Part shown: piece by piece, positions 4,125 to 62,639 of the stretch
Layout: the number at the start of each line of letters is the position of its first letter
How positions within the stretch are numbered: the stretch's first letter is position 1
Origin: Malacoraja senta
Lineage: Eukaryota
Direction: 5' to 3'
DNA: 64,000 bases
NCBI GenBank assembly: GCA_038087875.1
Contig: CM075990.1
Location: 14,200,001 to 14,264,000 of the forward strand
The notes under the pieces: model-generated
The model's input: only the letters and a program-made list of their open reading frames with translations
Told to the model about the DNA's origin: nothing
Databases searched by the model: none
Made by a program: the position numbers and the translations under genes

Positions 4125-4466
4125 ATGAAGAATAAGGGCATAAGTACGTTTATTGGCCAAGTATTCACATACAAGGAATTTGCCTTGGTGCTCAGCCCAC
4201 AAGTAACAACACGACCGACAGTGACAGTGACGAATGACTCAGAAAACACTAAACATTAATAATAATCAAACATTAATGATAAAACACCATTGATCAAGCT
4301 TGTGAACCAACAAAATACCAGATCAGATAGAATCTATCTATCTATGCTTTAATAATATCCTTCATAAAAGAAGGGCAGTTGTGCAAGGGTGGGAGACGGA
4401 AGGGGTTAACAAGGTAAGAAGGGGAGGGGATGGGGAGGGGGATGGATATAGAAGTCTGATACTCAC

Positions 4467-4537
4467 AGCTCGCCAGTGACAAGGACGGGCCCCGACCGCT
4501 GCCAACAGCACAGGGTTCCCACAGTAGCTTCACCCAT
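4467..4537 (-). CDS. PSD: Candidate coding part of an alternative first exon of PSD (MGEATVGTLCCWQRSGPVLVTGE-L)
   Basis: Strong Kozak GCGATGG at 4537; 71 nt to a GTGAGT donor at 4466-4461; ends in phase 2, the same phase as the intron opened at 16837; lies in CpG-rich unique sequence. Confidence 0.6.
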
Positions 4538-4964
4538 CGCAGCAGCCGCTCAGTCAGCGCTTATGCCTGGAGAAGGGGTGGGGTGGGATGTTGTCTGAGG
4601 TGACCCCCGCTCTGACCCAAGCCCCCACCCCCGTCCCTCCGGCAGCCATGGGCAGCTGGGCAGCTCGACCGGCCTGGCTCAGCGTCTCCCGCAGTCGGTC
4701 TGTCTCTCTGTCTCTCTGTCTGTGTCTCACTCTCAGCTGCGGCTGGATCGGAGCGCTAGAGGCAGAGGGAGAGGGAGAGGCAGAGGCAGAGGCATTCTCC
4801 GCACACACTCTCTCTCATGCCCTGCTCAACACCCTGGCCTTGACCGACCAATGCAAACCAGCTACTCCTCGCTCACACCGTCCCTCGGAGTTTGCAGAGA
4901 GGACAGACGCACCGAGACTCCTTCAGCCCCATCCGTCCCTGCACTCGTGTCTGGTCTGGTCTGG

Positions 4965-5078
4965 TCTCTCTCTCTCTCTCTCTCTCTTCCCCTCTCCTTC
5001 CTTCTCTCTCTCTCTCTTCCCCTCCTCTCTCTCTCTCTCTTCCCCTCTCCTTCCTTCTCTCTCTCTCTCTCTCTTCCC

Positions 5079-5118
<40 letters not shown>

Positions 5119-5161
5119 CCTCTCCTTCCTTCTCTCTCTCTCTCTCTCTTCCCCTCTCCTT

Positions 5162-5202
<41 letters not shown>

Positions 5203-5253
5203 CCTCTCCTTCCTTCCTTCCCTCTCTCTCTCTCTCTCTCTCTCTTCCCCTCT

Positions 5254-5294
<41 letters not shown>

Positions 5295-5299
5295 CCTCT

Positions 5300-5339
<40 letters not shown>

Positions 5340-5373
5340 CCTCTCCCCTCTCTCTCTCTCTCTCTCTCTCTCT
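4965..5373. repeat. Compound (TC)n / TTCCCCTCTCCTTCC polypyrimidine tract
   Basis: About 410 bp of pure pyrimidine on the plus strand. Confidence 0.97.
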
Positions 5374-5868
5374 CACGCCAGCCTCTTTTTCACGCTGTTC
5401 CCGTTCCAGCTGCCTCACCCAATCTCCCGTCAGGGTCACTTGCAAACCGTGCAAACCTCTGCACTTCGCTGGAGATTGATGCTGCCTGACCCCCTCGCCC
5501 CCACCCACCACACCTCCCTCCCTTCACTCTTCACCAGGCCTCCCTCCGGCTGCTGCACTTCATACTTCTATTGTCTGCTCTACACAACTGTGTGTGTGTC
5601 AGGTCAGGTCAACCCCTCCTTCCAAACTTTCCTCGGAGGTGGAGTTAGGTAAGGAGGTGGGTGCAAGAGAGACTGGTCTCCATATCTGTCCACTTGTAAA
5701 CTAATCACGACAAGCCTCATTCCTGTCAATGATTTCGTTTCAGTTGCTGGTTCCCTGTCCTGCGACTCTCACCTTCAGATCCTCTCTCTCCATTCCCGTC
5801 TTCATCTCTCTCTCCCCTTTCCTCACACTCTTTCTACATCTCTCTCTTCACACTCCCTCCCTCTCTCA

Positions 5869-6151: not shown

Positions 6152-6233
6152 TCTCCCTCCCTCCCTCTTCCTTCCCTTCCCTCTGACTCACTTTCCCCTC
6201 TCTTTTCTCTTCAATTCTCTCTTCCTCTCATGG

Positions 6234-7160
6234 AAACATAGAAAATAGGTGCAGGAGTAGGTCATTCTGCCCTTTGAGCCCTTCAATGTGATCATGGCTG
6301 ATCATCCAAAATCAGTACCCCGTTCCTGCTTTTTCCCCATATCCCTTGATCCCTTTAGCTCTAAGAGCTAAATCTGAAGGCTCTGTCTCACGGGTTTGCG
6401 GTCATTGGCGGTGAGGCGCGGCGTCACCGGAAGAGGGGACCGCACGGCAACCGCGAGAGCGCCGCGCCTATGCCACGGGAGCGCCACACGGATGCTGCGC
6501 GGGGGCCGAGTGATCTCCGTACGGCCGGATCCACGAGCTTGAGGCGTCGGGTGATGACGACATCGCGCAACGCGACGCGCTACACGATGACGTCATTTCG
6601 GTTCGCGGGGCTGTGGCGGTGCTGGTGGAGATCGCAGCGCTGTGTCGGCGGCTGTGGCGGTGAAAATTGGACTCACGGCGCTCGTGCCGCACTGGCGGCG
6701 GCTGTGGCGGTACGAAAGTTTTTTTCGACATTGTCGGTTTTTTGGGACCTACACCGCACGGCGCCGGCAGTGTGCATTGGACCGACCCCGCGGTCTCTGG
6801 CAGTCCACGAGCAGTAGAAACTTCCAGTTTCACCGCCAATGACCGCAAACCCGTGAGACAGGCCTTTAACTTTTAAAAACTTCCAGTGAATTGGCCTCCA
6901 CTGCCTTCTGTGGCAGAGAATTCCACAGATTCACAACTCTCTGGGTGAAAAAGTGTTTCCTCATCTCAGTCCTAAATGGCCTACCCCTTATTCTTAAACT
7001 GTGAGCCCTGGTTCTGGACTTCCCCAACATCTTTGGGAACATTTTTCCTGCATCTAGCCTGTCCAATCCCTTAAGATTTTTATCTATTTCTCTACGATCC
7101 CCTCTCATCCTTCTAAACTCCAGTGAATACAAGCCTAGTCGACCCATTCTTTCATCATTT
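6234..7160 (-). mobile_element. CR1 3' part split by the MITE at 6378-6866
   Basis: [15 protein letters not shown]...FFTQRVVNLWNSLP, plus CR1 tail at 6234-6375. Confidence 0.88.
6378..6866. mobile_element. CpG-rich Harbinger-type MITE nested in a CR1 3' end
   Basis: Long TIR (CTGTCTCACGGGTTTGCGGTCATTGGCGGTGA); TGA/TAA flanks; CR1 sequence resumes on both sides. Confidence 0.85.
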
Positions 7161-16456: not shown

Positions 16457-16836
16457 GAGTCCAGGCCAGCATCAAGCAGTCATTACACTAATCCTATATT
16501 TATATTCACCCTACATATCCAGTATTTCCCTTCACATTCCACCACTCACCTATACACTTGGGGACAATTAACTTCCATTCACCATGGCTTTGTGGTATGG
16601 GAGGAAACAGGAGCACCCAACACAGGTAGAATGTGCAAACTCCACATAGACAGCACCAGAGGTCAGGATTGAACCTAGATCACCGGAACTGAGAGGCAAC
16701 ATCTCCACCAGCTGCACCTCTGTGCCACTCTTGCGATGTCACAAATAGGGATTGGAATATGTTGTTGCTTTGCCAGAAGTACAGTTCAAACTCAGAAACC
16801 ATCACTGGGCCAAGTTGAGAACAGTTTGCAACTTAC

Positions 16837-17352
16837 CTGGATGAATAATCTGACTGTGGATCATCAGTGTCCATTTCACAGACCCCCTTGAGTAAGTTGT
16901 TGCTTGTGTAGAGTTGGCACTTGGTGAGAAGGTTCTCCGACTTGCTGTGGCCCACCATCGGGTTGGCACTTGGCTTCCTCTCCACTCTTGACACCTGGGA
17001 CCTGGGGCTTCCTGACCAGCTCGAGTCCACTCTAGAGTCTGTGGATGAATTAGCACTGGGCCAGGGTAAAAACTTCTCTTCAATCAGACGGGCATTCTCC
17101 TTGATCTGCTCCTGGATTTCCGGGGTCAGGGCTGGAAAGTCAAAGGTGAAGTAATTCCCCTGGCTCCTTTTTGGAGAGGCCAGAATCTCCACTGAGTCCA
17201 GGCTGGTGTAGGAGGTGCCTTTGGCACATTGAGACTCCAGGATGCACTCAAATTGTTTGCTGAAGGTGTCAGTGCCTTCTTCAGAGAGGCTCCGGGAAAT
17301 GCAGATCAAGGCCACAGATGGAAGCAGATTTTTGACCTCTGTGTCTGGTGAC
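16837..17352 (-). CDS. PSD: PSD coding exon, 516 nt (SPDTEV...DTFSKQFECILESQCAKGTSYTSLDSVEILASP...QSDYSS)
   Basis: Acceptor TCTTTGCCTTCTTCAG|G (phase 2); donor CAG|GTAAGT (phase 2). Matches recalled human DSFSCVFEAILESHRAKGTSYTSLASLEALASP. Confidence 0.93.
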
Positions 17353-24256: not shown

Positions 24257-24761
24257 CTGTCAGCAGCAGCAGACGAGGTCTCGTAGAATACTTCATCGTC
24301 TGGGGCTTTGGACTCTTCCTCTCCACTCTCTCCTCCACTCCCAGCGTTCCCATCTGGCATGGACAACCCGGGAGAAATGGAATGAGAGTCCACCTGGACA
24401 TCACATCCTACTGTTGAACCAGGGTGTTGCAGACTCTGGCACTTCTCTGGGCTGTCCATGTTGGCTTCAGCCATGACCTCATCTAGATTGGTTTCCTGGT
24501 AGCGTCTGACTGGCACCGCGTCCAGGTCTGTCTCCGAGAACTTGGTCCTTCTGGATGCATCTCCTGGTTTGCAATTCGTGGAATTCCCATTTGGCAAAGG
24601 AGAGACCTTTGGACCATTGGCCTCCTCCCTCAAGCCGCGATTGACAGGCTTCCAAGTCCCAGATGTTCCATCGTTGGACACCTCGTTCCACTCATTCCGC
24701 ACTGTTTCATTATCGTCAACGGCGTGTGGATTTGCTAATGTCTGCTGGATCTGCGATTCAG
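24257..24761 (-). CDS. PSD: PSD coding exon, 505 nt (AESQIQ...KFSETDLDAVPVRRYQETNLDEVMAE...DDEVFYETSSAAAD)
   Basis: Acceptor TTTTCTCCTTACAG|CT (phase 1); donor CAG|GTAATG (phase 2). Matches recalled human [26 protein letters not shown] and DDEVF. Confidence 0.93.
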
Positions 24762-25370: not shown

Positions 25371-26270
25371 TGTAGATTAATGATGCATGTGAACCGATCA
25401 CTAACTCCACCCCACCATAACACTATACTAACGCCTATTCCCAGCACCGTCAGCTAGGATGAACTGACAACACCTTGTCTTTAGATGCTGCCAAGTTACA
25501 GTGCTGATTAAAGATGTGTTTTAATCATATACTGTCTCCGGTGTCGATTTACATGGTGTCATTTAAAAAAAAAAAATTTTTTAATTAAAGTTCATACCGA
25601 ACCTCAGCAAACTAAGCTCCACACTGTGGCAGCTGACCAAAAAGGACACTGCATGGTCATGGTTCCAGCAACACCAGGATGCCTTTGATGTTCTAAAATC
25701 CAAACTGACCAGTGCACCGACCCTGACTTTTTTCGACCTGAAACGTCCGGTGGCGATCACCTGCGATGCCTCGAAATTCTGGCTCGGCGCAGCCTGCTTG
25801 CAACCGTCTGATGATGGCACCCTACTACCTGTCGCGTATGCCTCTCGCACAATGACCGACACGGAGCAGCACTACGCGCAAATCGAAAAGGAACTGCTGG
25901 CTGTCGTCTTTGCCTGCTCCAAATTACACGACTTCGTCCATGGCAACACGTTCCCGGTCGAGACGGACCACCAACCACTGGTGACAATCCTGAACAAGCC
26001 CATCCATGCCGCGCCAGCTCGCTTGCAGCGCATGATGAAGCAGCTGCAGCGGTACGACTTCTGTATTACCTACACAAAGGGTAGGGACATGCATGTCGCA
26101 GACACACTCTCTCGTGCACCTCGAGCATCTTGCGAACATCACCCCCATGAACGGGAGAATTTCACGGTTCTCGGTGTCGATCTCATCTCCAGTAAGCAAC
26201 TGCGCCTCCTGGCCACGCATACTGCCAATGATGATACGCTTCAAGCCCTCTCATCCATCATCAATCTACA
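25371..26270 (+). mobile_element. Rearranged Ty3/Gypsy element: 183-bp LTR, PBS stub, RT-end/RNase H fragment, inverted LTR start
   Basis: LTR TG(25371)...ACA(25553) with ATTAAA; TGGTGTCA PBS stub; pol peptide KFIPNLS...CDASKFWLGA...YAQIEKELLAVVFA...ETDHQPL...VADTLSR; TTAGG TSD at 25366-25370 and 26271-26275. Confidence 0.9.
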
Positions 26271-27290
26271 TTAGGTCCCTTCTTTAGACCCTGTCCATTC
26301 CTGCCACTGATGCTACCTGAACCGCTGAGTTCCGCCAGCACTTTGTGTTTCGCTCAAGGCTCCAGCATGTAGTTTCTCATGTCTCTGTTTTACTTGCATT
26401 TATTTGCTTCATAGCTCTGACAGCACCAAATACCACTGGGAATAAGAACAGAACTGTAATATATCAAAGGATTATGGGGATCAATTGTGCAAAGAACCAA
26501 AGATAGATTCACTATTGACACTGGATCTTTGGCCCGCTGAGTTTACACTTATCATCAATCACCCATTTACACTCATCTCATGTTTTATTCCCCCAAGTTT
26601 CTCATCATCTCTCTGCAATCTATTGCTATCACACACCATTATCCTGCATGTCATTGGAATATAGCAGAGCCTCTATAGAACATACCTGTTTAAGAAACCC
26701 ATTGGGAATCTTTATCTCATTGCTCAGACTTTACTTCACCTTGTTGAGCAATTTTAGGAAACGGCAAAGACACCAGAATTTGCAATTGAAGCTCACAGTT
26801 TATCAGTCAATCCAAGCTATCAAAGGCCATTTTCATCAACACATTCTTAACATTGGGTGATTGCAGTGCAGCCAGTAGAGTTGCTGCCTCACAGCTCCAG
26901 TGACCGGGGTTAAATCTGGACCTCCGATGCTGTCAGTGTGTAGTTTGCACGTTCTCTCTGAGATGACGTGGATTCTCCATTTTCCTCCTACGTCCCACAC
27001 TAACGTGGATTTATAATTTAATAGGTCACTCTAAATTGCTCCTTGTGTTTAGATGGGTTGTAGAATATGAAGTTGTTAGGAATGTACAGAGAATAGGTGG
27101 CAGGGGATAATTGGCCATGGAATGGCAATACTCTGTGAGCCGGTGCAGACTCGATGGACTGAATGGCCTCGTTTTAGGTCCTGAGGAAATATGAAAGCAG
27201 TTTCCACAAATCTACCCATGACAGCATCAATGTGACTGCCAATGGCTAGTGACATCTTTTCAGCATGTCCAAGATGGATTCGACATTTAC

Positions 27291-27402
27291 CTTTATCTTC
27301 TGGGGCCTGCGGTTCTGAGGTTCCATAGAAGAATTCTCGTCTGGCTTTTGCAATCTTCTGAGCCCGCTCGGAGTGTTCCCTGGCCCATGTACAAGAGTAG
27401 GC
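27291..27402 (-). CDS. PSD: PSD coding exon, 112 nt (AYSCTWAREHSERAQKIAKARREFFYGTSEPQAPEDK)
   Basis: Acceptor TTTTGTTTTTTAAG|GCC (phase 0); donor AAG|GTAAAT (phase 1). Matches recalled human PSD AQRIARAKWEFFYG. Confidence 0.92.
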
Positions 27403-33033: not shown

Positions 33034-33963
33034 CTGTTTGAAGCCAGGGCTGTTTGGACTCTCCATTTCAATTGATGGCTCTGAGCTGTGATTAGATAAG
33101 TCGATATTATTGTTGGATGTTTCATTGAAAGTGGATGCAGTCGTTGGGTTTGTTCCCAGGTCCTGACTACTGGTCTGTGATGGTTCTGATGTGAACAAGT
33201 GGTCTATCTTGTTCCCATTTTGGAGGCCAATGTGGGAATCTTGAGCATCAGGGCACTTTGTACTAACACTGTCAACCAAGCATTGGCCGGCCACCAACCC
33301 ATCTGATGGCCTGCTCGAGGCTCCCACAGTCACCATGTCTAGACTTCCCATCTGAGGCAGTTTTGATACAAAACTCGACAATGCTTTGTGCCCAGTTTGT
33401 GGGCTTCTATATCCAGCTGACGGAAATTGCGCTGTGGAAAGACGTTTTGCTTCTTGAGAAACCACCGATGTGCTGAAAGGATTAACGATGGTCTTCACCT
33501 TGGCCTTTTCGATGTAGCTGAAAGTAACGACCGAGCTTTTACCTCCAGTATTGAAGTTCGCCTTTCTTACTGTATTCTCCAAGGTAGAGGGGCAGAAGGA
33601 GCGAGTTCTGACTCCCACCGGGGAGGTGGGAGCAGTGGACCTCCCTGGGCTGCTGGCGATCGTTTCCCGAAAGGGGTTGGTCTCCGATCGAGTGCGGACA
33701 AGCGAGGACCCGATCTTCTCTCGGCCAGGCAAGCCCAAGAAGTCGACTCTGGCTTCTGGCTGCAGGCTGCGTCTCTGCATGTGGGGCCGGGGGGTCAGTG
33801 AATTGGCGGAGGAGGATTGGCATGGTGACCGGCTGGGGGCTTCGTACTGAGCTGTGTTCAGGTAGCCCCGTCCCGGAGATTCTGAAGGCATTTGGACACA
33901 ATTCCTGGAGTGACCGGTCCTCAGCTCCATGTAGAAAGTCATGACTTTTGTATTCTGCGCCAT
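33034..33963 (-). CDS. PSD: PSD/EFA6A first coding exon (MAQNTKVMTF...SPGFKQ); exon begins at acceptor 33980
   Basis: Acceptor ...CCTTCGTTTGTGATAG|GATT; ATG in GGAATGG context; donor CAG|GTACTT, phase 0; 310 codons. The MAQ start and SSVVTFSYIEKAKVK match recalled human PSD MAQ... and SSVVIFRFVEKASVR. Confidence 0.88.
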
Positions 33964-37760: not shown

Positions 37761-38297
37761 GGCGCAAGCTGACACATTCATAGTTGACCTACCTTTCCCT
37801 TTACGATTATTCTTTTCTCTGTCTCCCCAATCACTTGGACAGCTGGCCACAGGCGAGGAGCAGCTGGTACCCGTAGTGAGTCGAATATAACGCCATCCAA
37901 CACCAATACAGATTCCAAACTCAAAGGCCCTGGTTAGCACTTGGCAGCCAGCTACTGGCACTTGACTCGGACTAAATTAGGTTATAGTACAATGTTGAAG
38001 CAAGTCTCCATACCCGATGTCAACAGGCTCTCCAGAGATCCATTTAATTCTGTCAGTAGTCGGAATGACTTCACGTACCGTCATATAACCCGTGACCGGG
38101 TCCTGGGCCGTTGCCACTGCTGCAAGAGGCCACGTATGTCATGTAGAGTAACAACGCTGACTATGTCCCCCACCCCCTCTCCCCAGACTGCTTACACCGT
38201 GTCCAGTAGGATGAGCTGTGATTGAATCTGACTTAATCCTGCTTAACATCCACGGGTCACGTGAGGGTGGATGTAGACCAGGGGAAAAATAAATAAT

Positions 38298-38679
38298 GGG
38301 AGAGGGAGAGGGGGAGAGAGGGAGAGGGGAGAGGGAGAGGGAGAGGAGAGGGAGAGGGAGAGGGAGAGGGAGAGGGAGAGGGAGAGGGAGAGGGAGAGGG
38401 AGAGGGAGAGGGAGAGGGAGAGGGAGAGGGAGAGGGAGAGGAGAGGGAGAGGGAGGGAGAGGGAGAGGGAGAGGGAGAGGGAGAGGGAGAGGGAGAGGGA
38501 GAGGGAGAGGGAGAGGGAGAGGGAGAGGGAGAGGGAGAGGGAGAGGGAGAGGGAGAGGGAGAGGGAGAGGGAGAGGGAGAGGGAGAGGGAGAGGGAGAGG
38601 GAGAGGGAGAGGGAGAGGGAGAGGGAGAGGGAGAGGGAGAGGGGAGGGAGAGGGAGAGGGAGAGGGAGAGGGAGAGGGA

Positions 38680-38710
<31 letters not shown>
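38298..38710. repeat. (GAGGGA)n hexamer array ending in (GA)n
   Basis: About 410 bp of pure purine, roughly 65 hexamer units. Confidence 0.97.
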
Positions 38711-38715
<5 letters not shown>

Positions 38716-40130
38716 CAGAGAGGGACAGGGCGACAGACAAGCAGAAATGGGCAGGCAGAGAATGGTGTCGTCTCAAAATGAATGGGGCAACTTCTTTTAC
38801 ACAGAACTGGAGCGTACTGTCAGGGGTGGTGGTGTTTGGAGGCAGAATTGATAGTGGCATTTAAGAGACAAAGTCAAAGTCAATTTTATTCCTCACATGC
38901 ACCCAAAGGTGCAATGAAATGAATTTGCCAGCAGCGATACACTTAAAAAGAACACACAATACACAATAATATTTAACACAAACACCCACCACAGGCATTC
39001 TTCACTGTGGTGGAAGGCAACAAAGTTCAGTCAGTCCTCCTCCCTTGTTGGATAGGCACGTGGATATGCAGGGAATGGAGGGATATTGGCTATCTGCAGC
39101 TGTATCTGAGATAACCTTGGCATCATGCTCGGCACAGACATTGTGGGCCGCAGGGCCTGTCCTTGTGCTGTGCTATGTTCCATGTAACCAACCTCCTCAC
39201 GTTTTTGACCAACACTTTGAAACCTCTCTGTTCAGTACATTTGTCTTGGCTAAAAGAAAAATGTGCCCATTGATTACAGACACTCATATTCCCATCATTT
39301 TCATCTCCGTCCACCCCTCAATTCATGACGACTGTCTATTGATCAGATACATCACCAGAGCAGGACAGCCCCAGATCAATCTAAGCTCTGTGTAAGATTT
39401 ACCTGCTTGCAGCAGAGGACTGTTATGTTGGGTGTGTGCATAGTTGTAACTCGTCAGATTTGAGGTGAAAGCAGGCTGTATGTAATTCCTCATTGCAAAA
39501 CAAAGATGATATTTATCTTCAAAAGCAAGGGGCCCAATGTTGTATTTTAGCCATTTGAGGCACAGAGGCATGCTGGAATATTGGGCATTTATTGGCCAAT
39601 GTTAATTGCCCGTGAATTGAGATGCTGGTTGGGCAAGTAACCACATCATTCCTGGTCTGGAATCACGTGCGATTCACAATGGGTAAATTTAATTGATTTC
39701 CTTCTGGATTTTTAAAACAATCAGTATTTTTTAGAGTCATCATTACTTATACTATCTTTTAATCCCAGATTTAGATATAAATTGAATTAAATTCTCCAGA
39801 TGCCATGACTGGATTTGAACTCACGTCTCCAGATTACTGATTCAGACTTCCAGTTTATAAATCTGTTCACAGAGACAGAGAGTACGAGAGCACAGAAACA
39901 GGCCCTTCATCCCATCAAGCATTCCCTGACATTAATCTCAGTTTATGCTCTTTATATTTCCAGTAACTTCCCCAGCTTGTCTGTTACCCACACCAAGCAG
40001 TAATTATCAATGGCCAATTAACCCTCCAACTTGTATTTCTTTGGAATATGGGACGAAATCGTAGCACCCGGACAAATCCCACACAGCCACAGGGAGAGCG
40101 TGCAAACCCCACATGGACAGCACACAGAAT

Positions 40131-40925: not shown

Positions 40926-41539
40926 ATGCAACCGCAAGAGATGCAACACTTGTCCCTTCACCTCCCCCCTCTACTCCATTCAAGGACCCAAGCAGTCGTT
41001 CCAGGTGCGACAGAGGTTCACCTGCATCTCCTCCAACCTCATCTATTGCATTCGCTGCTCTAGATGCCAGCTGATCTGCATCGGTGAGACCAAGCGGAGG
41101 CTTGGCGATCGTTTCGCCGAACACCTCCGGTCGGTCCGCAATAGCCAACCTGAACTCCCGGTGGCTCAGCACTTCAACTCCCCCTCCCATTCCGTATCTG
41201 ACCTCTCTGTCCTGGGTCTCCTCCATGGCCACAGCGAGCAACACCGTAAATTGGAGGAAATGCACCTCATATTCCGCTTGGGCAGTCTACATCCTGGGGG
41301 CTTGAACATTGAATTCTCCCAACTCTGCTAGCCCTTGCTGTCCCCTCCCCTTCATCAGCCCTCTGGTTGTCTCCTCCCATCCCCCAGCCCTCGGGCTCCT
41401 CCTCCGCCTTTTTCCTTTTTTCCTTTCTTCTCCCCACCCCCTATCAGTCTGAAGAAGGGTTTCGGCCCGAAACGTTGCCTATTTCCTTCGCTCCATAGAT
41501 GCAGCTGCACCCGCTGAGTTTCTCCAGCATTTTTGTGTA
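40926..41539 (+). mobile_element. 5'-truncated Penelope-like element (Neptune-type): GIY-YIG endonuclease C-terminus plus pLTR
   Basis: CNRKRCNTC...FTCISSNLIYCIRCSRCQLICIGETKRRLGDRFAEH...PVAQHF...GLN; imperfect 13-bp TSD CCTTCCATTTATG/CCTTCCGTTTGTG. Confidence 0.9.
41449..41476 (+). ncRNA. Minimal hammerhead ribozyme-like core in a Penelope pLTR
   Basis: CTGAAGA-A-GGGTTTCGGCCC-GAAA-CG-TT: CUGANGA box, stem II, GAAA box, palindromic ACGU stem III, UH site. Confidence 0.7.
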
Positions 41540-42295: not shown

Positions 42296-43916
42296 TAATA
42301 ATAATAATAATAATAATAGATTTTATTTATATAGCGCTTTTCAGGACTCAAAGTCGCTTTACAATTGAGAGTCAGGAATAAACAAAACAAAATAGAGCAG
42401 TAAGACAGAGGGGAGGGGAACATGGGACTAAGGGTATGCAGAGGTGAAGAGATGGGTCTTGAGGCGGGACTGGAAGATGGTGAGGGACTCAGAATTTCGG
42501 ACCGGTTGTGGGAGGGAATTCCAGAGCCTGGGAGCTGCCCTGGAGAAGGCTCTGCCTCCAAAGGTGCAGAGGTTTGATTTCGGAGTGGAGAGGAGACCGG
42601 CTGATGTGGATCTGAGGGACCGTGAGGGTTGGTAGGGGGAGAGGAGGTCAATGAGATAAGGGGGGGCCAGGTTGTTGAGGGCTTTGTAGGTGAGGACCAG
42701 GATTTTGTAGGTGATCCGGTGGGAAATGGGAAGCCAGTGTAGTTCTTTGAGAACTGGGGTGATGTGGTGCCAGGATTTGGTGTGGGTAATGAGTCGAGCG
42801 GCTGCATTTTGGACCAGTTGGAGTCGTTTGATGCTGCTGGAATTGATTCCGAAAAGAAGAGAGTTACAGTAGTCCAGTCGGGAGGAGATGAAGGCATGGA
42901 TGAGTCTTTCAGCAGCGGGGGGTGTGAGAGACGATCTGATTTTTGCAATGTTGCGGAGGTGAAAAAATGATGTTTTGACAACATGGCGGATGTGAGGCTC
43001 AAGGGAGAGGGTTGAATCAAAGATCACGCCAAGGTTGCGGGCCTGAGGAGATGGGGAGACAGTGGTGCCATCAATAGTGAGAGTGGGGTTGTTAATTTTA
43101 GTGAGTGTTGATTTGGAGCCAATGAGGAGAAATTCTGTTTTGCTACTGTTTAATTTAAGGAAGTTGAGTTGCATCCAAGATTTGATGGCTGATAGGCAGG
43201 AGTTGATATGGGAGAGAGGGGGTGGTGGGGGGACTTGGTGCTGAGATAGATCTGGGTGTCATCAGCATAGCAGTGGAAGTCCCGGTTGAAGTGACGGAGT
43301 ATATGACCAAGGGGGAGGATGTAGATGATGAAGAGGAGGGGACCAAGAACGGAGCCTTGGGGAACGCCTTGAGTGACAGTGGCTGTGGCAGAGGTGTGGT
43401 TATGGAGAGAGATGAAGTGGGATCGGTTGGAAAGGTAAGAACGGAACCAGCTGAGTGCAGAACCTTCAATGCCAAGGTCCCTAAGTCTGGTGAGCAGGAT
43501 GTTGTGGTTGACGGTATCGAAGGCTGCACTCAGGTCGAGGAGGATGAGGATATTGAGGGAGCCAGAGTCAGCAGAGGTAAGGAGGTCATTGAGGACTTTG
43601 AGGAGAGCAGTTTCTGTGCTATGGAGGGGGCGAAAGCCAGATTGGAGGGGTTCGAATAGGTTATACGCGAGGAGGTGGGAATGAAGTTGTGACGCGACGA
43701 TGCGCTCCAGGGTTTTTGAAAGAAAGGGGAGGTTTGAGATGGGGCGGTAGTTAATGAGAGAGGAGGGATCAAGACCAGGTTTCTTTAAGATTGGTGTGAC
43801 AGCAGCAGTTTTGAAAGCAGAGGGGACAATTCCTTGGGACAATGAGGAGTTGAAAAGATTAGTGAGGTAGGGGCAGAGAGCAGGGAGGCAGGACTTCAGC
43901 AGGGGAGTGGGGAGAG
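42296..43916 (-). mobile_element. Young L2-clade LINE, 5'-truncated, RT ORF2 with one frameshift near 43200
   Basis: YRPISNLPFLSK, QSGFR..HSTETAL, LDLSAAFDTV, GVPQGSVLGP, YADDTQ, LHWLP; (ATT)n tail; inserted in a V-SINE tail. Confidence 0.95.
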
Positions 43917-44200
43917 CACACAGCACAGAAACAGGCCCTTCAGACCACCGAGTCTGCGCCGACCGGCAATCCCCGCACACTAACACTATCCTACACACAA
44001 TTGGGACAATTTACATTTATACCAAGCCAATTAACCTACAAACCTGTACACCTTTGGAGTGTGGGAGGAAACCGGAGATCTCGGAGAAAACCCACACAGA
44101 TCACGGGGAGAATGTACAGACTCCATACAGACAAGCACCCGTGGTCAGGATCGAACCCAGGTCTCTGGCGCTGTAAGGCAGCAACTCTACCATAGTGCCC
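43917..44200 (-). mobile_element. V-SINE whose (AAACT)n tail (42278-42295) is displaced by the L2 insertion
   Basis: SINE body continues across the L2. Confidence 0.8.
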
Positions 44201-60281: not shown

Positions 60282-61813
60282 CCACACATGACTTCTGTAG
60301 CAAAACATCTCCACCTCCCCATCAAGCGAGCAGACACAAGAAACAGATTTACCAACAAAGACACAAATTGCTGGAGTAACTTCAGCAGGTCAGGCAGCAT
60401 CTCCGAGAACATGAAGAACATGGTCTGAAGAAGGGTCCTGACCCAAATAGTCTCCTATCCATATTCTTGAAAGACACTACCTGACCCATTGATTACTCCA
60501 GCACTTTGTGTCTTTTTCCCCCATGAAGATACTTTGGCTCACCAGAACTCAGGACGTGCTTAGACTGAGAACTGATCCTATGTTTTACAACATGGCAGTT
60601 GGGTGAGCAAAGGGTGCAATTAAGATAGCTTTTCATCTCCTTCAATAGGAACACAGACAGAGGATTGCTACGGGTGCTGTCGGTACAGATTTTGTACGTT
60701 CTCCCTATGACTGCATGAGTTTTCTCCAGTGCTCCAGTTTCCTCCCACAGACCTCTCCAAAGACGTACAGGTTTGTAGTTTAATTGGCATCTGTAAAATT
60801 GTAAATTATCCTTAGTGTGTGGGATATAGTTAGTGTACACGTTAGCACGGACTTGGTGGGCGGAAGGGCCTGTTTCCGCACTGTCTAAAGTCTAAAAACT
60901 GAATGTATCCCAGAAGGTTTTCTCATAAGATCTCCACTTACATCCATTCCTCTGGGTGTACATTTCACTCCTCCTCTCATTATCTGACACTCTTTTATCT
61001 CCTTTCAATCTCTAGCTTTTGTTACTTACTCTCGCATTTGCGAATCAAACCTCCCTCACCTGTATCACATTCTAGGTTTTGTCCTGACCTCCCACTTCTT
61101 TTCCAGCTTTCTCCCCCTCCCCACATCTACTTCCCCACAGTCATCAGGCTATTAAACCTGGCTCAGACAAAACACTGAGCTTTATTAGCCAATTAACTGT
61201 CTGTATATATATTAGCCAATTAACTGTGTGTGTATATATTTATAGAATGGTATATGGACACACTGATCTGTTTTGTAGTCAATGCCTACTATGTTCTGTT
61301 GTGCTGAAGCAAAGCAAGAATTTCATTGTCCTGTCAGGGACACATGACAATAAACTCACTTGAACTTGAACTCCCCTCCCTATTACCATCAGCCTGAAGA
61401 AGGGTCCAGACCCAAATGTCATCTGTCCATTCCCTCCACAGATGTTGCCTGACCCGTTGAGTTACCCCAGTACTTTTTTGCCTTGATCACTTTTTGCCTT
61501 GTCCACAATAGTTTATTGACCACCTTGTGGAGCCTGACGTCCAATTCAGATACGAGGAGACTCACTGCGTGGTTGATTAGATGATTCAGCAATCAATTAT
61601 TGGCCTTGTGTGATATTTTTACCCATTAAAGACAAGTGGTTTGTTTGCTGTACTATCTGGAGCATTCATTAGTAATTCCTAGAGATCTCTGGTCAAACCT
61701 GCATATTTCAAATACAGAAATACAAACCTGTATTTCTACTCACATGGTTTAGTTATGTCTGCTCAGGGTAGAAATTTTCAATTTTAACATTTGTACTCCA
61801 CTACCAACATTCG

Positions 61814-62639
61814 TTGGCTCCAAATCAACACTCACTAAAATTAACAACCCCACTCTCACTATCGACGGCACCACTGTCTCCCCATCTCCTCAGGCCCGCA
61901 ACCTTGGCGTGATCTTTGAATCAACCCTCTCCCTTGAGCCTCACATCCGCCATGTTGTCAAAACATCATTTTTTCACCTCCGCAACATTGCAAAAATCAG
62001 ATCGTCTCTCACACCCCCCGCTGCTGAAAGACTCATCCATGCCTTCATCTCCTCCCGACTGGACTACTGTAACTCTCTTCTTTTCGGAATCAATTCCAGC
62101 AACATCAAACGACTCCAACTGGTCCAAAATGCAGCCGCTCGACTCATTACCCACACCAAATCCTGGCACCACATCACCCCAGTTCTCAAAGAACTTCACT
62201 GGCTTCCCATTTCCCACAGGATCACCTACAAAATCCTGGTCCTCACCTACAAAGCCCTCAACAACCTGCCCCCCCCTTATCTCATTGACCTCCTCTCCCC
62301 CTACCAACCCTCACGGTCCCTCAGATCCACATCAGCTGGTCTCCTCTCCACTCCGAAATCAAACCTCTGCACTTTTGGAGGCAGAGCCTTCTCCAGGGCA
62401 GCTCCCAGGCTCTGGAATTCCCTCCCACAACCGGTCCGAAATTCTGAGTCCCTCACCATCTTCCAGTCCCGCCTCAAGACCCATCTCTTCACCTCTGCAT
62501 ACCCTTAGTCCCATGTTCCCCTCCCCTCTGTCTTACTGCTCTATTTTGTTTTGTTTATTCCTGACTCTCAATTGTAAAGCGACTTTGAGACCTGAAAAGC
62601 GCTATATAAATAAAATCTATTATTATTATTATTATTATT
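61814..62639 (+). mobile_element. Young L2 LINE 3' part
   Basis: Near-identical to 42296-43120; (ATT)n tail. Confidence 0.95.

Follow-up and report, generated by a model that had tools for sequence, protein, structure and literature searches.

An alternative first coding exon conserved in elasmobranch PSD/EFA6A, with a Cys-Cys-Trp tip as a candidate for S-acylation

The PSD/EFA6A locus of Malacoraja senta raises the question of whether the intron that follows the fourth long-form coding exon holds a second start for the protein, and whether the short N-terminus encoded there could carry a lipid. We analysed a stretch of 64,000 nt (the window), and the coordinates of its features are collected in Table 1. 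An ATG at 4537-4535 on the minus strand, in the context GCGATGG, opens 23 codons, MGEATVGTLCCWQRSGPVLVTGE, followed by the two bases CT, and the original prediction that this frame stays open to a GTGAGT donor at 4466 is borne out. The split codon CT-N specifies leucine whatever base follows. An in-frame stop at 4552-4550 lies 5' of the ATG, with the open segment starting at 4549, and the exon thus has no upstream in-frame extension. The predicted 31-codon uORF (4649-4554) has the coordinates claimed for it, stops 16 nt 5' of the ATG and is out of frame; additional upstream ATGs are present at 4795, 4818 and 4932 on the same strand. Pfam contains no domain that matches the exon peptide.

Table 1. 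Coordinates of PSD/EFA6A features and neighbouring elements in the window.
Feature	Position	Strand	Basis or remark
Long isoform coding exon 1	33034..33963	-	tblastn with stingray PSD protein P0001; boundaries read
Long isoform coding exon 2	27291..27402	-	tblastn with stingray PSD protein P0001; boundaries read
Long isoform coding exon 3, phase-2 end	24257..24761	-	tblastn with stingray PSD protein P0001; boundaries read
Long isoform coding exon 4, phase-2 end	16837..17352	-	protein matches; boundaries read
Acceptor-like pyrimidine tract and TAG; exon would start at 4755	4756..4780	-	21/22 pyrimidines; CT-rich low-complexity stretch
GC-rich stretch, candidate internal promoter or 5' UTR	4401..5000	.	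GC 0.63-0.64; not a CpG island
uORF, 31 codons, out of frame with ATG 4537	4554..4649	-	stop ends 16 nt before ATG
Alternative first coding exon of PSD/EFA6A, coding part	4467..4537	-	23 codons + 2 nt; sequence, profile E=1.1e-12
Cys10-Cys11-Trp12 codons, core of LCCWQ; candidate S-acylation site	4502..4510	-	pattern match, alignment
5' splice donor GTGAGT, phase 2	4461..4466 (GT = 4466-4465)	-	exonic side GCT non-consensus

Taken by itself, the combination of ATG, open frame and donor is not above chance. The minus strand has 19 instances of the bare pattern with a phase-2 GTRAGT, at 12 donors, and the plus strand 11, at seven donors; four of the 12 minus-strand donors fall within the same intron as ATG 4537. 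The exon stands above chance because it is conserved: a profile built from 11 relatives, with the window peptide excluded, places it at the top of 3395 stop-to-stop segments of the window (45.4 bits, E=1.1e-12), and the runner-up segment has E=0.083. Short RefSeq isoforms (445-565 aa) that begin with the exon peptide are represented by 18 proteins in 11 of the 20 cartilaginous species sampled (Leucoraja, Amblyraja, Narcine, Hypanus, Hemitrygon, Mobula hypostoma, Heterodontus, Scyliorhinus torazame, Stegostoma, Hemiscyllium and Chiloscyllium), which span skates, rays and three shark orders. NCBI normally requires transcript support for such predicted (XP_) isoforms. Among the cluster representatives and matches listed (15 of the 21 members for one cluster), neither the nine remaining cartilaginous species, of which chimaera is one, nor a further 138 proteins of PSD type showed the start.

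The short PSD forms of Leucoraja erinacea (XP_055517683.1) and Amblyraja radiata (XP_032868769.1) share with the window the same start, the LCCWQ core, the terminal Glu-Leu and the junction, and the orthologous exons of Hypanus sabinus (XP_059802506.1), Heterodontus francisci (XP_067876596.1) and Stegostoma tigrinum (XP_048419302.1) do likewise. The window copy differs in having Glu3 and in being three residues shorter than the exons of the two skates; relative to the Leucoraja erinacea RefSeq start it is identical at 22 of 24 residues (92%), with a 3-residue in-frame gap. Within 4300-4960, contigs from two sequencing runs of unspecified kind agree with the window over 4350-4576 and 4367-4690, free of mismatches, gaps and joints. 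This agreement does not bear on expression, and these runs are possibly the source of the window itself and so do not provide independent support for the 9-nt shorter exon. In an alignment of ten relatives and the window, Met1, Gly7, Leu-Cys-Cys-Trp-Gln, one more Gly and the terminal Glu-Leu are invariant, and LCCWQ is constant while its flanks drift and vary in length. Five of the nine invariant non-Met columns fall in one run (P=0.035, a mild test), and the cysteine pair lies at residues 9-10, 10-11 or 11-12, as Leu-Cys-Cys-Trp, in all 11 species. The start and junction are kept in other elasmobranchs, one of the points on which the original prediction depended. These comparisons confirm that the alternative first coding exon is real and is conserved in elasmobranch PSD/EFA6A, and a short Sec7-containing isoform almost certainly exists. 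Since RefSeq already predicts this isoform in 11 elasmobranch relatives it is not new as an annotation; we found no functional study of the elasmobranch short PSD isoforms in the open-access literature.

Assignment of the gene to PSD/EFA6A also holds, as an orthologue placed by phylogeny. The window contains only N-terminal PSD exons, which are linked to the proteins in the tree by protein and tblastn matches; with exon 4 as the query, 29 PSD-like proteins were retrieved, the best of them from cartilaginous fishes. In a tree of 36 hand-picked proteins, built from the Sec7-PH-coiled-coil region, the isoforms with LCCW group with chimaera, lungfish, tetrapod and ray-finned PSD (99/98 support) and apart from the PSD2, PSD3 and PSD4-like rows. 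The receiving Sec7-proximal exon lies beyond the window edge, and the domains and downstream junction were read in the proteins of relatives. A 537-aa skate short form has Sec7 at 55-216 and PH at 267-378, and Pfam Sec7 and PH_9 score above cut-off in relatives' proteins P0101 and P0033. No EFA6 chain was present among 39 matched sequences in the PDB, the matches being to other Sec7 and PH domains.

The four long-form coding exons sum to 2063 nt, or 687 codons plus 2 nt, such that 688 residues are swapped for 24 in the short form, close to the loss of about 690 aa originally proposed. The phase argument is likewise sound: the last long-form exon (17352-16837) ends in phase 2, as does the 4466 donor, and both would fit the Sec7-proximal exon. 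The exon-4 donor, at the 16837 end, and the 4466 donor are in competition for the acceptor downstream. In the relatives, short forms have Leu at the junction and long forms have Ser or Arg, reflecting CT-N versus AG-N split codons, as phase 2 predicts. We note that exon 3, which ends at 24257, is also in phase 2, and that forms skipping exon 4 are found in relatives (P0103-P0105, P0416, P0423).

A more complex arrangement is seen at this junction in the relatives, where an 18-residue cassette that itself begins Cys-Cys-Trp occurs in 34 of the sampled proteins from 15 cartilaginous species, chimaera included (for example P0033, P0036, P0046 and P0086). It is present in long forms, behind other short starts and, in seven proteins, after the LCCW exon; ten of the 34 proteins are shorter than 600 aa. 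Because the LCCW exon ends in an invariant Leu encoded by the split codon, joining it to the cassette rebuilds a second LCCW. The cassette is Arg-rich and strongly basic in stingrays and mantas, and net acidic in the chimaera. Pattern and relaxed tblastn searches of the window gave nothing convincing for the cassette or for the other alternative starts of the relatives (best E 0.04, low-complexity). Comparison of the exon and the cassette by hhalign gives a probability of 65% over eight columns, the score being carried by CCW itself, and an origin of the two by duplication is a guess. CCW near the junction or N-terminus was seen in none of 138 PSD-type proteins from outside the cartilaginous fishes, a sample that includes 18 short-start models; this survey covered cluster representatives from 120 of 565 and 120 of 168 matches, with a motif that misses teleost psda, so absence from tetrapods is weakly founded.

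Which lipid, if any, the tip could carry was judged from the residues that are kept. The original description of a Met-Gly, di-Cys N-terminus stands for the cysteine pair, invariant in 11 of 11 relatives, but not for Met-Gly as a meaningful feature. Residue 2 is Gly in the window and in eight of the 11 relatives and Ala in the remaining three, all carpet sharks; residue 3 is acidic (Asp or Glu) in every relative. A PROSITE-type myristoylation pattern, with permissive residues at positions 3 and 6, matches neither the window peptide nor any of the 11 relatives, in keeping with the weak consensus (Glu3, Val6) noted at the outset. A passage in a review conflicts with this pattern, stating that a charged residue after Gly is favoured for myristoylation (PMC4692089). 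The loss of Gly2 in three species is independent of both the pattern and the review, and suggests that Met-Gly is incidental and that it is the cysteine pair that is under selection. Myristoylation of the tip thus appears unlikely and S-acylation of its cysteine pair plausible; the tip is poor in basic residues.

N-terminal di-cysteine proteins that are S-acylated include GAP-43, G-alpha-q and PSD-95 alpha. Passages of PMC11417247 describe how an N-terminal cysteine pair holds LIMK1 at membranes without myristoylation, and how splicing yields S-acylated isoforms of other signalling proteins such as BTK-C. The PSD exon is alike in having a cysteine pair near the N-terminus with no myristoylation signal and in placing a putative lipid tip under exon choice, but acylation of LIMK1 and BTK-C has been demonstrated biochemically, whereas that of PSD is suggested by the sequence. 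PSD3 is included in a curated mammalian palmitoylome from two studies with no site given, and PSD1, PSD2 and PSD4 do not appear under those names in the same file (PMC4537140, supplement 1). Site-level brain data in the supplements of PMC12874130 list other cysteines, Psd3 C884, Psd2 C428 and Psd C67, for canonical long entries, and the hydroxylamine enrichment of Psd3 given there is modest (1.6-fold, adjusted P 0.044). Psd3 is absent from three supplementary files of PMC10696250 and from two of PMC5498535 (57,570 characters), whose main tables may lie outside those files. Within the portions of the open-access literature covered, including those of the family review PMC6724607, neither acylation of EFA6 nor this isoform was found to be reported, and we found no Sec7-family exchange factor described as S-acylated; supplements and isoform-aware searches beyond this coverage could bear on the acylation result.

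The paralogue PSD3 offers a close parallel. Human PSD3/EFA6R/EFA6D isoform 3 (isoform B, Q9NYI0-3, 513 aa) resembles the short PSD form in having its own short first exon on a Sec7-PH-coiled-coil body. According to passages in PMC13131818 only its first 11 residues differ from the long form, and sections of PMC4246094 and PMC13131818 describe it as the predominant 56-kDa form. The MG...CC start attributed to PSD3 at the equivalent position is indeed found there, as Cys10-Cys11 at the same intron in primate, rodent, bat and carnivore forms. In eight mammalian starts, hand-picked from 120 of 168 matches listed and with three sitting behind an upstream Met, the 11 residues end in Cys10-Cys11 in every case, and Gly2 is missing from three. 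The myristoylation pattern is present in five of these eight and in two of three fish PSD3 short starts; PSD3 isoform 3 is thus unlike the elasmobranch PSD exon both in often matching this pattern and in lacking a Trp after the cysteines. The open-access literature yielded no account of an acylated N-terminus for it. Skate PSD, gar PSD2 and the PSD3 of primates, sturgeon and reedfish all have 15 residues between the junction and a conserved Met (one residue more in the marsupial row), which points to a slot common to the three genes. For the starts themselves, hhalign of the elasmobranch exon against PSD3 starts gives probabilities of 1.6% (mammalian) and 0.7% (fish) with 11-28-column profiles of little power, and profile comparison detected no homology between the exon and the PSD3, PSD2 or teleost starts, within the reach of such short profiles.

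Various other starts were observed in the family. Short psda isoforms of teleosts (Brachyhypopomus XP_076830154.1, Dissostichus KAK1905448.1, P0220) belong to the PSD lineage and have Ala2 and Cys-Trp at 7-8; they differ from the elasmobranch exon in that their motif has a single Cys and a conserved stretch rich in Gly comes after it, and hhalign gives a probability of 1.9% between the two. The teleost psda start (P0098, P0220, P0340) is a possible counterpart of the elasmobranch exon. PSD3 of sturgeon, carp and sawshark has a different short start with one or two unpaired cysteines, and ray-finned PSD2 (P0380-P0383, P0519, P0523) has, at the same intron, a conserved Cys-free start of 17 residues, rich in aromatic residues and Leu, that could form an amphipathic membrane helix. 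Cys-bearing starts are also seen on long PSD3-cluster forms of the Tasmanian devil (P0366) and coelacanth (P0371-P0373), one of them, beginning Met-Gly-Asn-Cys, fitting the myristoylation pattern. Loggerhead turtle PSD (P0147, P0172-P0174) has Arg-Cys-Trp-Ser in an insert at the same junction, in a single species and possibly by chance.

Forms of 379-388 aa that lack the start of Sec7 are present in shark and ray PSD (P0050, P0057, P0067, P0070, P0421) and in coelacanth PSD3 (P0370), with a similar first exon, Met-Ile-Gly-x-Asn-Ser-Val, in both paralogues; this suggests that some internal first exons may be older than the gene duplications. Their design resembles that of EFA6As and EFA6Ds. Parts of PMC6522047 describe EFA6As and EFA6D1s/2s as short forms from internal starts in which the Sec7 domain is missing; these are internal-start forms of the same genes, but the elasmobranch short PSD keeps its Sec7.

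A plausible scenario for Malacoraja senta is that a transcript begins within the intron after the fourth long-form exon and uses ATG 4537 and the 4466 donor, as seen in the gene models of relatives. The donor would join the Sec7-proximal exon either directly or by way of the 18-residue cassette exon. The resulting ARF6 exchange factor would measure about 535-555 residues, keep Sec7 and PH intact and have a 24-residue tip in place of 688 residues. The initiator Met would be removed and the small residue 2, preceding Asp or Glu, N-acetylated rather than myristoylated; the PH domain and C-terminal region would direct the protein to the plasma membrane, and S-acylation of the invariant Leu-Cys-Cys-Trp there may provide a reversible second anchor beside Sec7. 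Inclusion of the cassette would add a second Cys-Cys-Trp with basic residues, and thus give isoforms with none, one or two motifs. We regard Met removal, N-acetylation, PH-led targeting and LCCW acylation, jointly, as on balance just probable, and the explanation as a whole, a conserved alternative exon that yields a short ARF6 exchange factor with an S-acylated LCCW tip, as probable. According to section 23 of PMC4246094, human PSD3 isoform B without its PH domain and with an N-terminal GFP is diffuse in the cytosol, so that the N-terminus does not suffice to anchor it, at least when GFP precedes it, and a lipid tip would be a second anchor at most.

The surroundings of the exon, originally described as CpG-rich, do not quite deserve the term. 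The 400 bp at 4451-4850 have a GC content of 0.64, reached by only one of 159 tiles of that size in the window, but their CpG observed/expected ratio of 0.49, against a window median of 0.41, is reached by 30% of the tiles. The CpG-richest stretch of the window (6201-7000), with an observed/expected ratio that peaks at 1.36, is found 1.7-2.5 kb 5' of the exon and looks like an inserted repeat rather than a promoter, with similar end motifs at 47, 241, 1255, 20033 and 35888. Long GA/CT microsatellites at 4965-5390 and 38240-38860 give rise to spurious long ORFs, and intronic ORFs at 25585-26274, 40927-41331, 42428-44010 and 61753-62508 resemble what we take to be remnants of retroelement reverse-transcriptase, RNase H and endonuclease.

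The lack of a CpG island around ATG 4537 leaves room for a different gene structure, in which the exon is the first coding exon and not the first exon. Situated 218 nt 5' of the ATG, the acceptor-like site at 4755 could receive a non-coding exon ending at the donor-like GTGAGG after 5419 (5419-5413), beyond the GA repeat, placing the uORF in the mRNA, where it would damp translation; the long-form donor at 16836 might also splice to 4755 and read 66 codons in phase 2, in the uORF frame, to the stop at 4554, making a poison exon. The 4755 site has the highest pyrimidine content of the 1994 minus-strand YAG sites in the window, but this ranking is uncalibrated (two true acceptors of the PSD gene score only 0.77), its tract is a CT-rich repeat, and the agreement of frame has a one-in-three chance. 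We consider this structure improbable; as far as the protein is concerned, it does not conflict with the preferred explanation. It is barely credible, by comparison, that the exon is a chance intronic pairing of ATG and donor or an annotation artefact copied among related genomes. The bare pattern is indeed common at minus-strand donors, and NCBI models may borrow protein evidence from relatives, but the profile match was obtained from relatives alone, and copying by annotation could not produce a core that stays invariant across sharks and rays between flanks that diverge and change length in frame.

A closer competitor accepts the isoform and dispenses with the lipid: the exon would supply a tissue-specific promoter and a start, and LCCW would be a protein-binding or redox motif. 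Short starts that lack cysteines join these genes at this junction too (P0039, P0047, P0062 and internal-Met forms), as they do in fish PSD2, the Trp and Gln of LCCWQ are as invariant as the cysteines, and in the parts of PMC4246094 concerned tagged PSD3 isoform B needs no more than its PH and coiled-coil domains to reach the plasma membrane. Against this, cysteine pairs at residues 9-12 recur in the elasmobranch exon, the cassette and the mammalian PSD3 exon, which cannot be aligned with it, and a shared position with no likeness of sequence would fit a lipid site better than a binding epitope; we hold this reading to be somewhat unlikely. At the other extreme is a Src-type dual anchor, with Gly2 myristoylated and the cysteines then palmitoylated. 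Gly2 in the window and most relatives, and the frequent match of PSD3 starts to the pattern, speak for it, but Ala2 in the carpet sharks, the universal acidic residue 3, the failure of the pattern in all 11 relatives and the window, and the spacing of 8-9 residues between Gly and the cysteines make it very unlikely.

A conserved exon with an S-acylated tip therefore remains the reading that we prefer for the elasmobranch short PSD. With predictions of the isoform on record for 11 relatives and a like design in a paralogue, the exon carries little weight as an annotation, and its interest lies in what the comparison suggests. In two paralogues a cysteine pair is kept at 10-11 and Gly2 is not, and sharks and rays have a second, separately spliced motif; this signal would suggest that EFA6 exchange factors are under a control not yet described, namely reversible S-acylation. 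A broader proposal, which we put forward tentatively and as possible rather than probable, is that the phase-2 intron 5' of Sec7 is a family-wide slot for lipid tips, such that elasmobranch PSD could set none, one or two S-acylated CCW motifs, and that human PSD3 isoform 3 may be acylated at Cys10-Cys11 and, in primates, at Gly2 as well. The PSD3 gene is tied to fatty liver and dendritic spines, and isoform 3 is the main form in human brain and several tissues. A lipid-tip layer of ARF6 activation would have been overlooked because the localisation and kinase studies considered here, two in number, used N-terminal tags. A 2026 paper states, in the part concerned, that for the four EFA6 genes the routes by which forms with the same catalytic body reach different membranes are still unclear (PMC12995699). 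If the proposal is true, S-acylated tips would help to answer how they do so.
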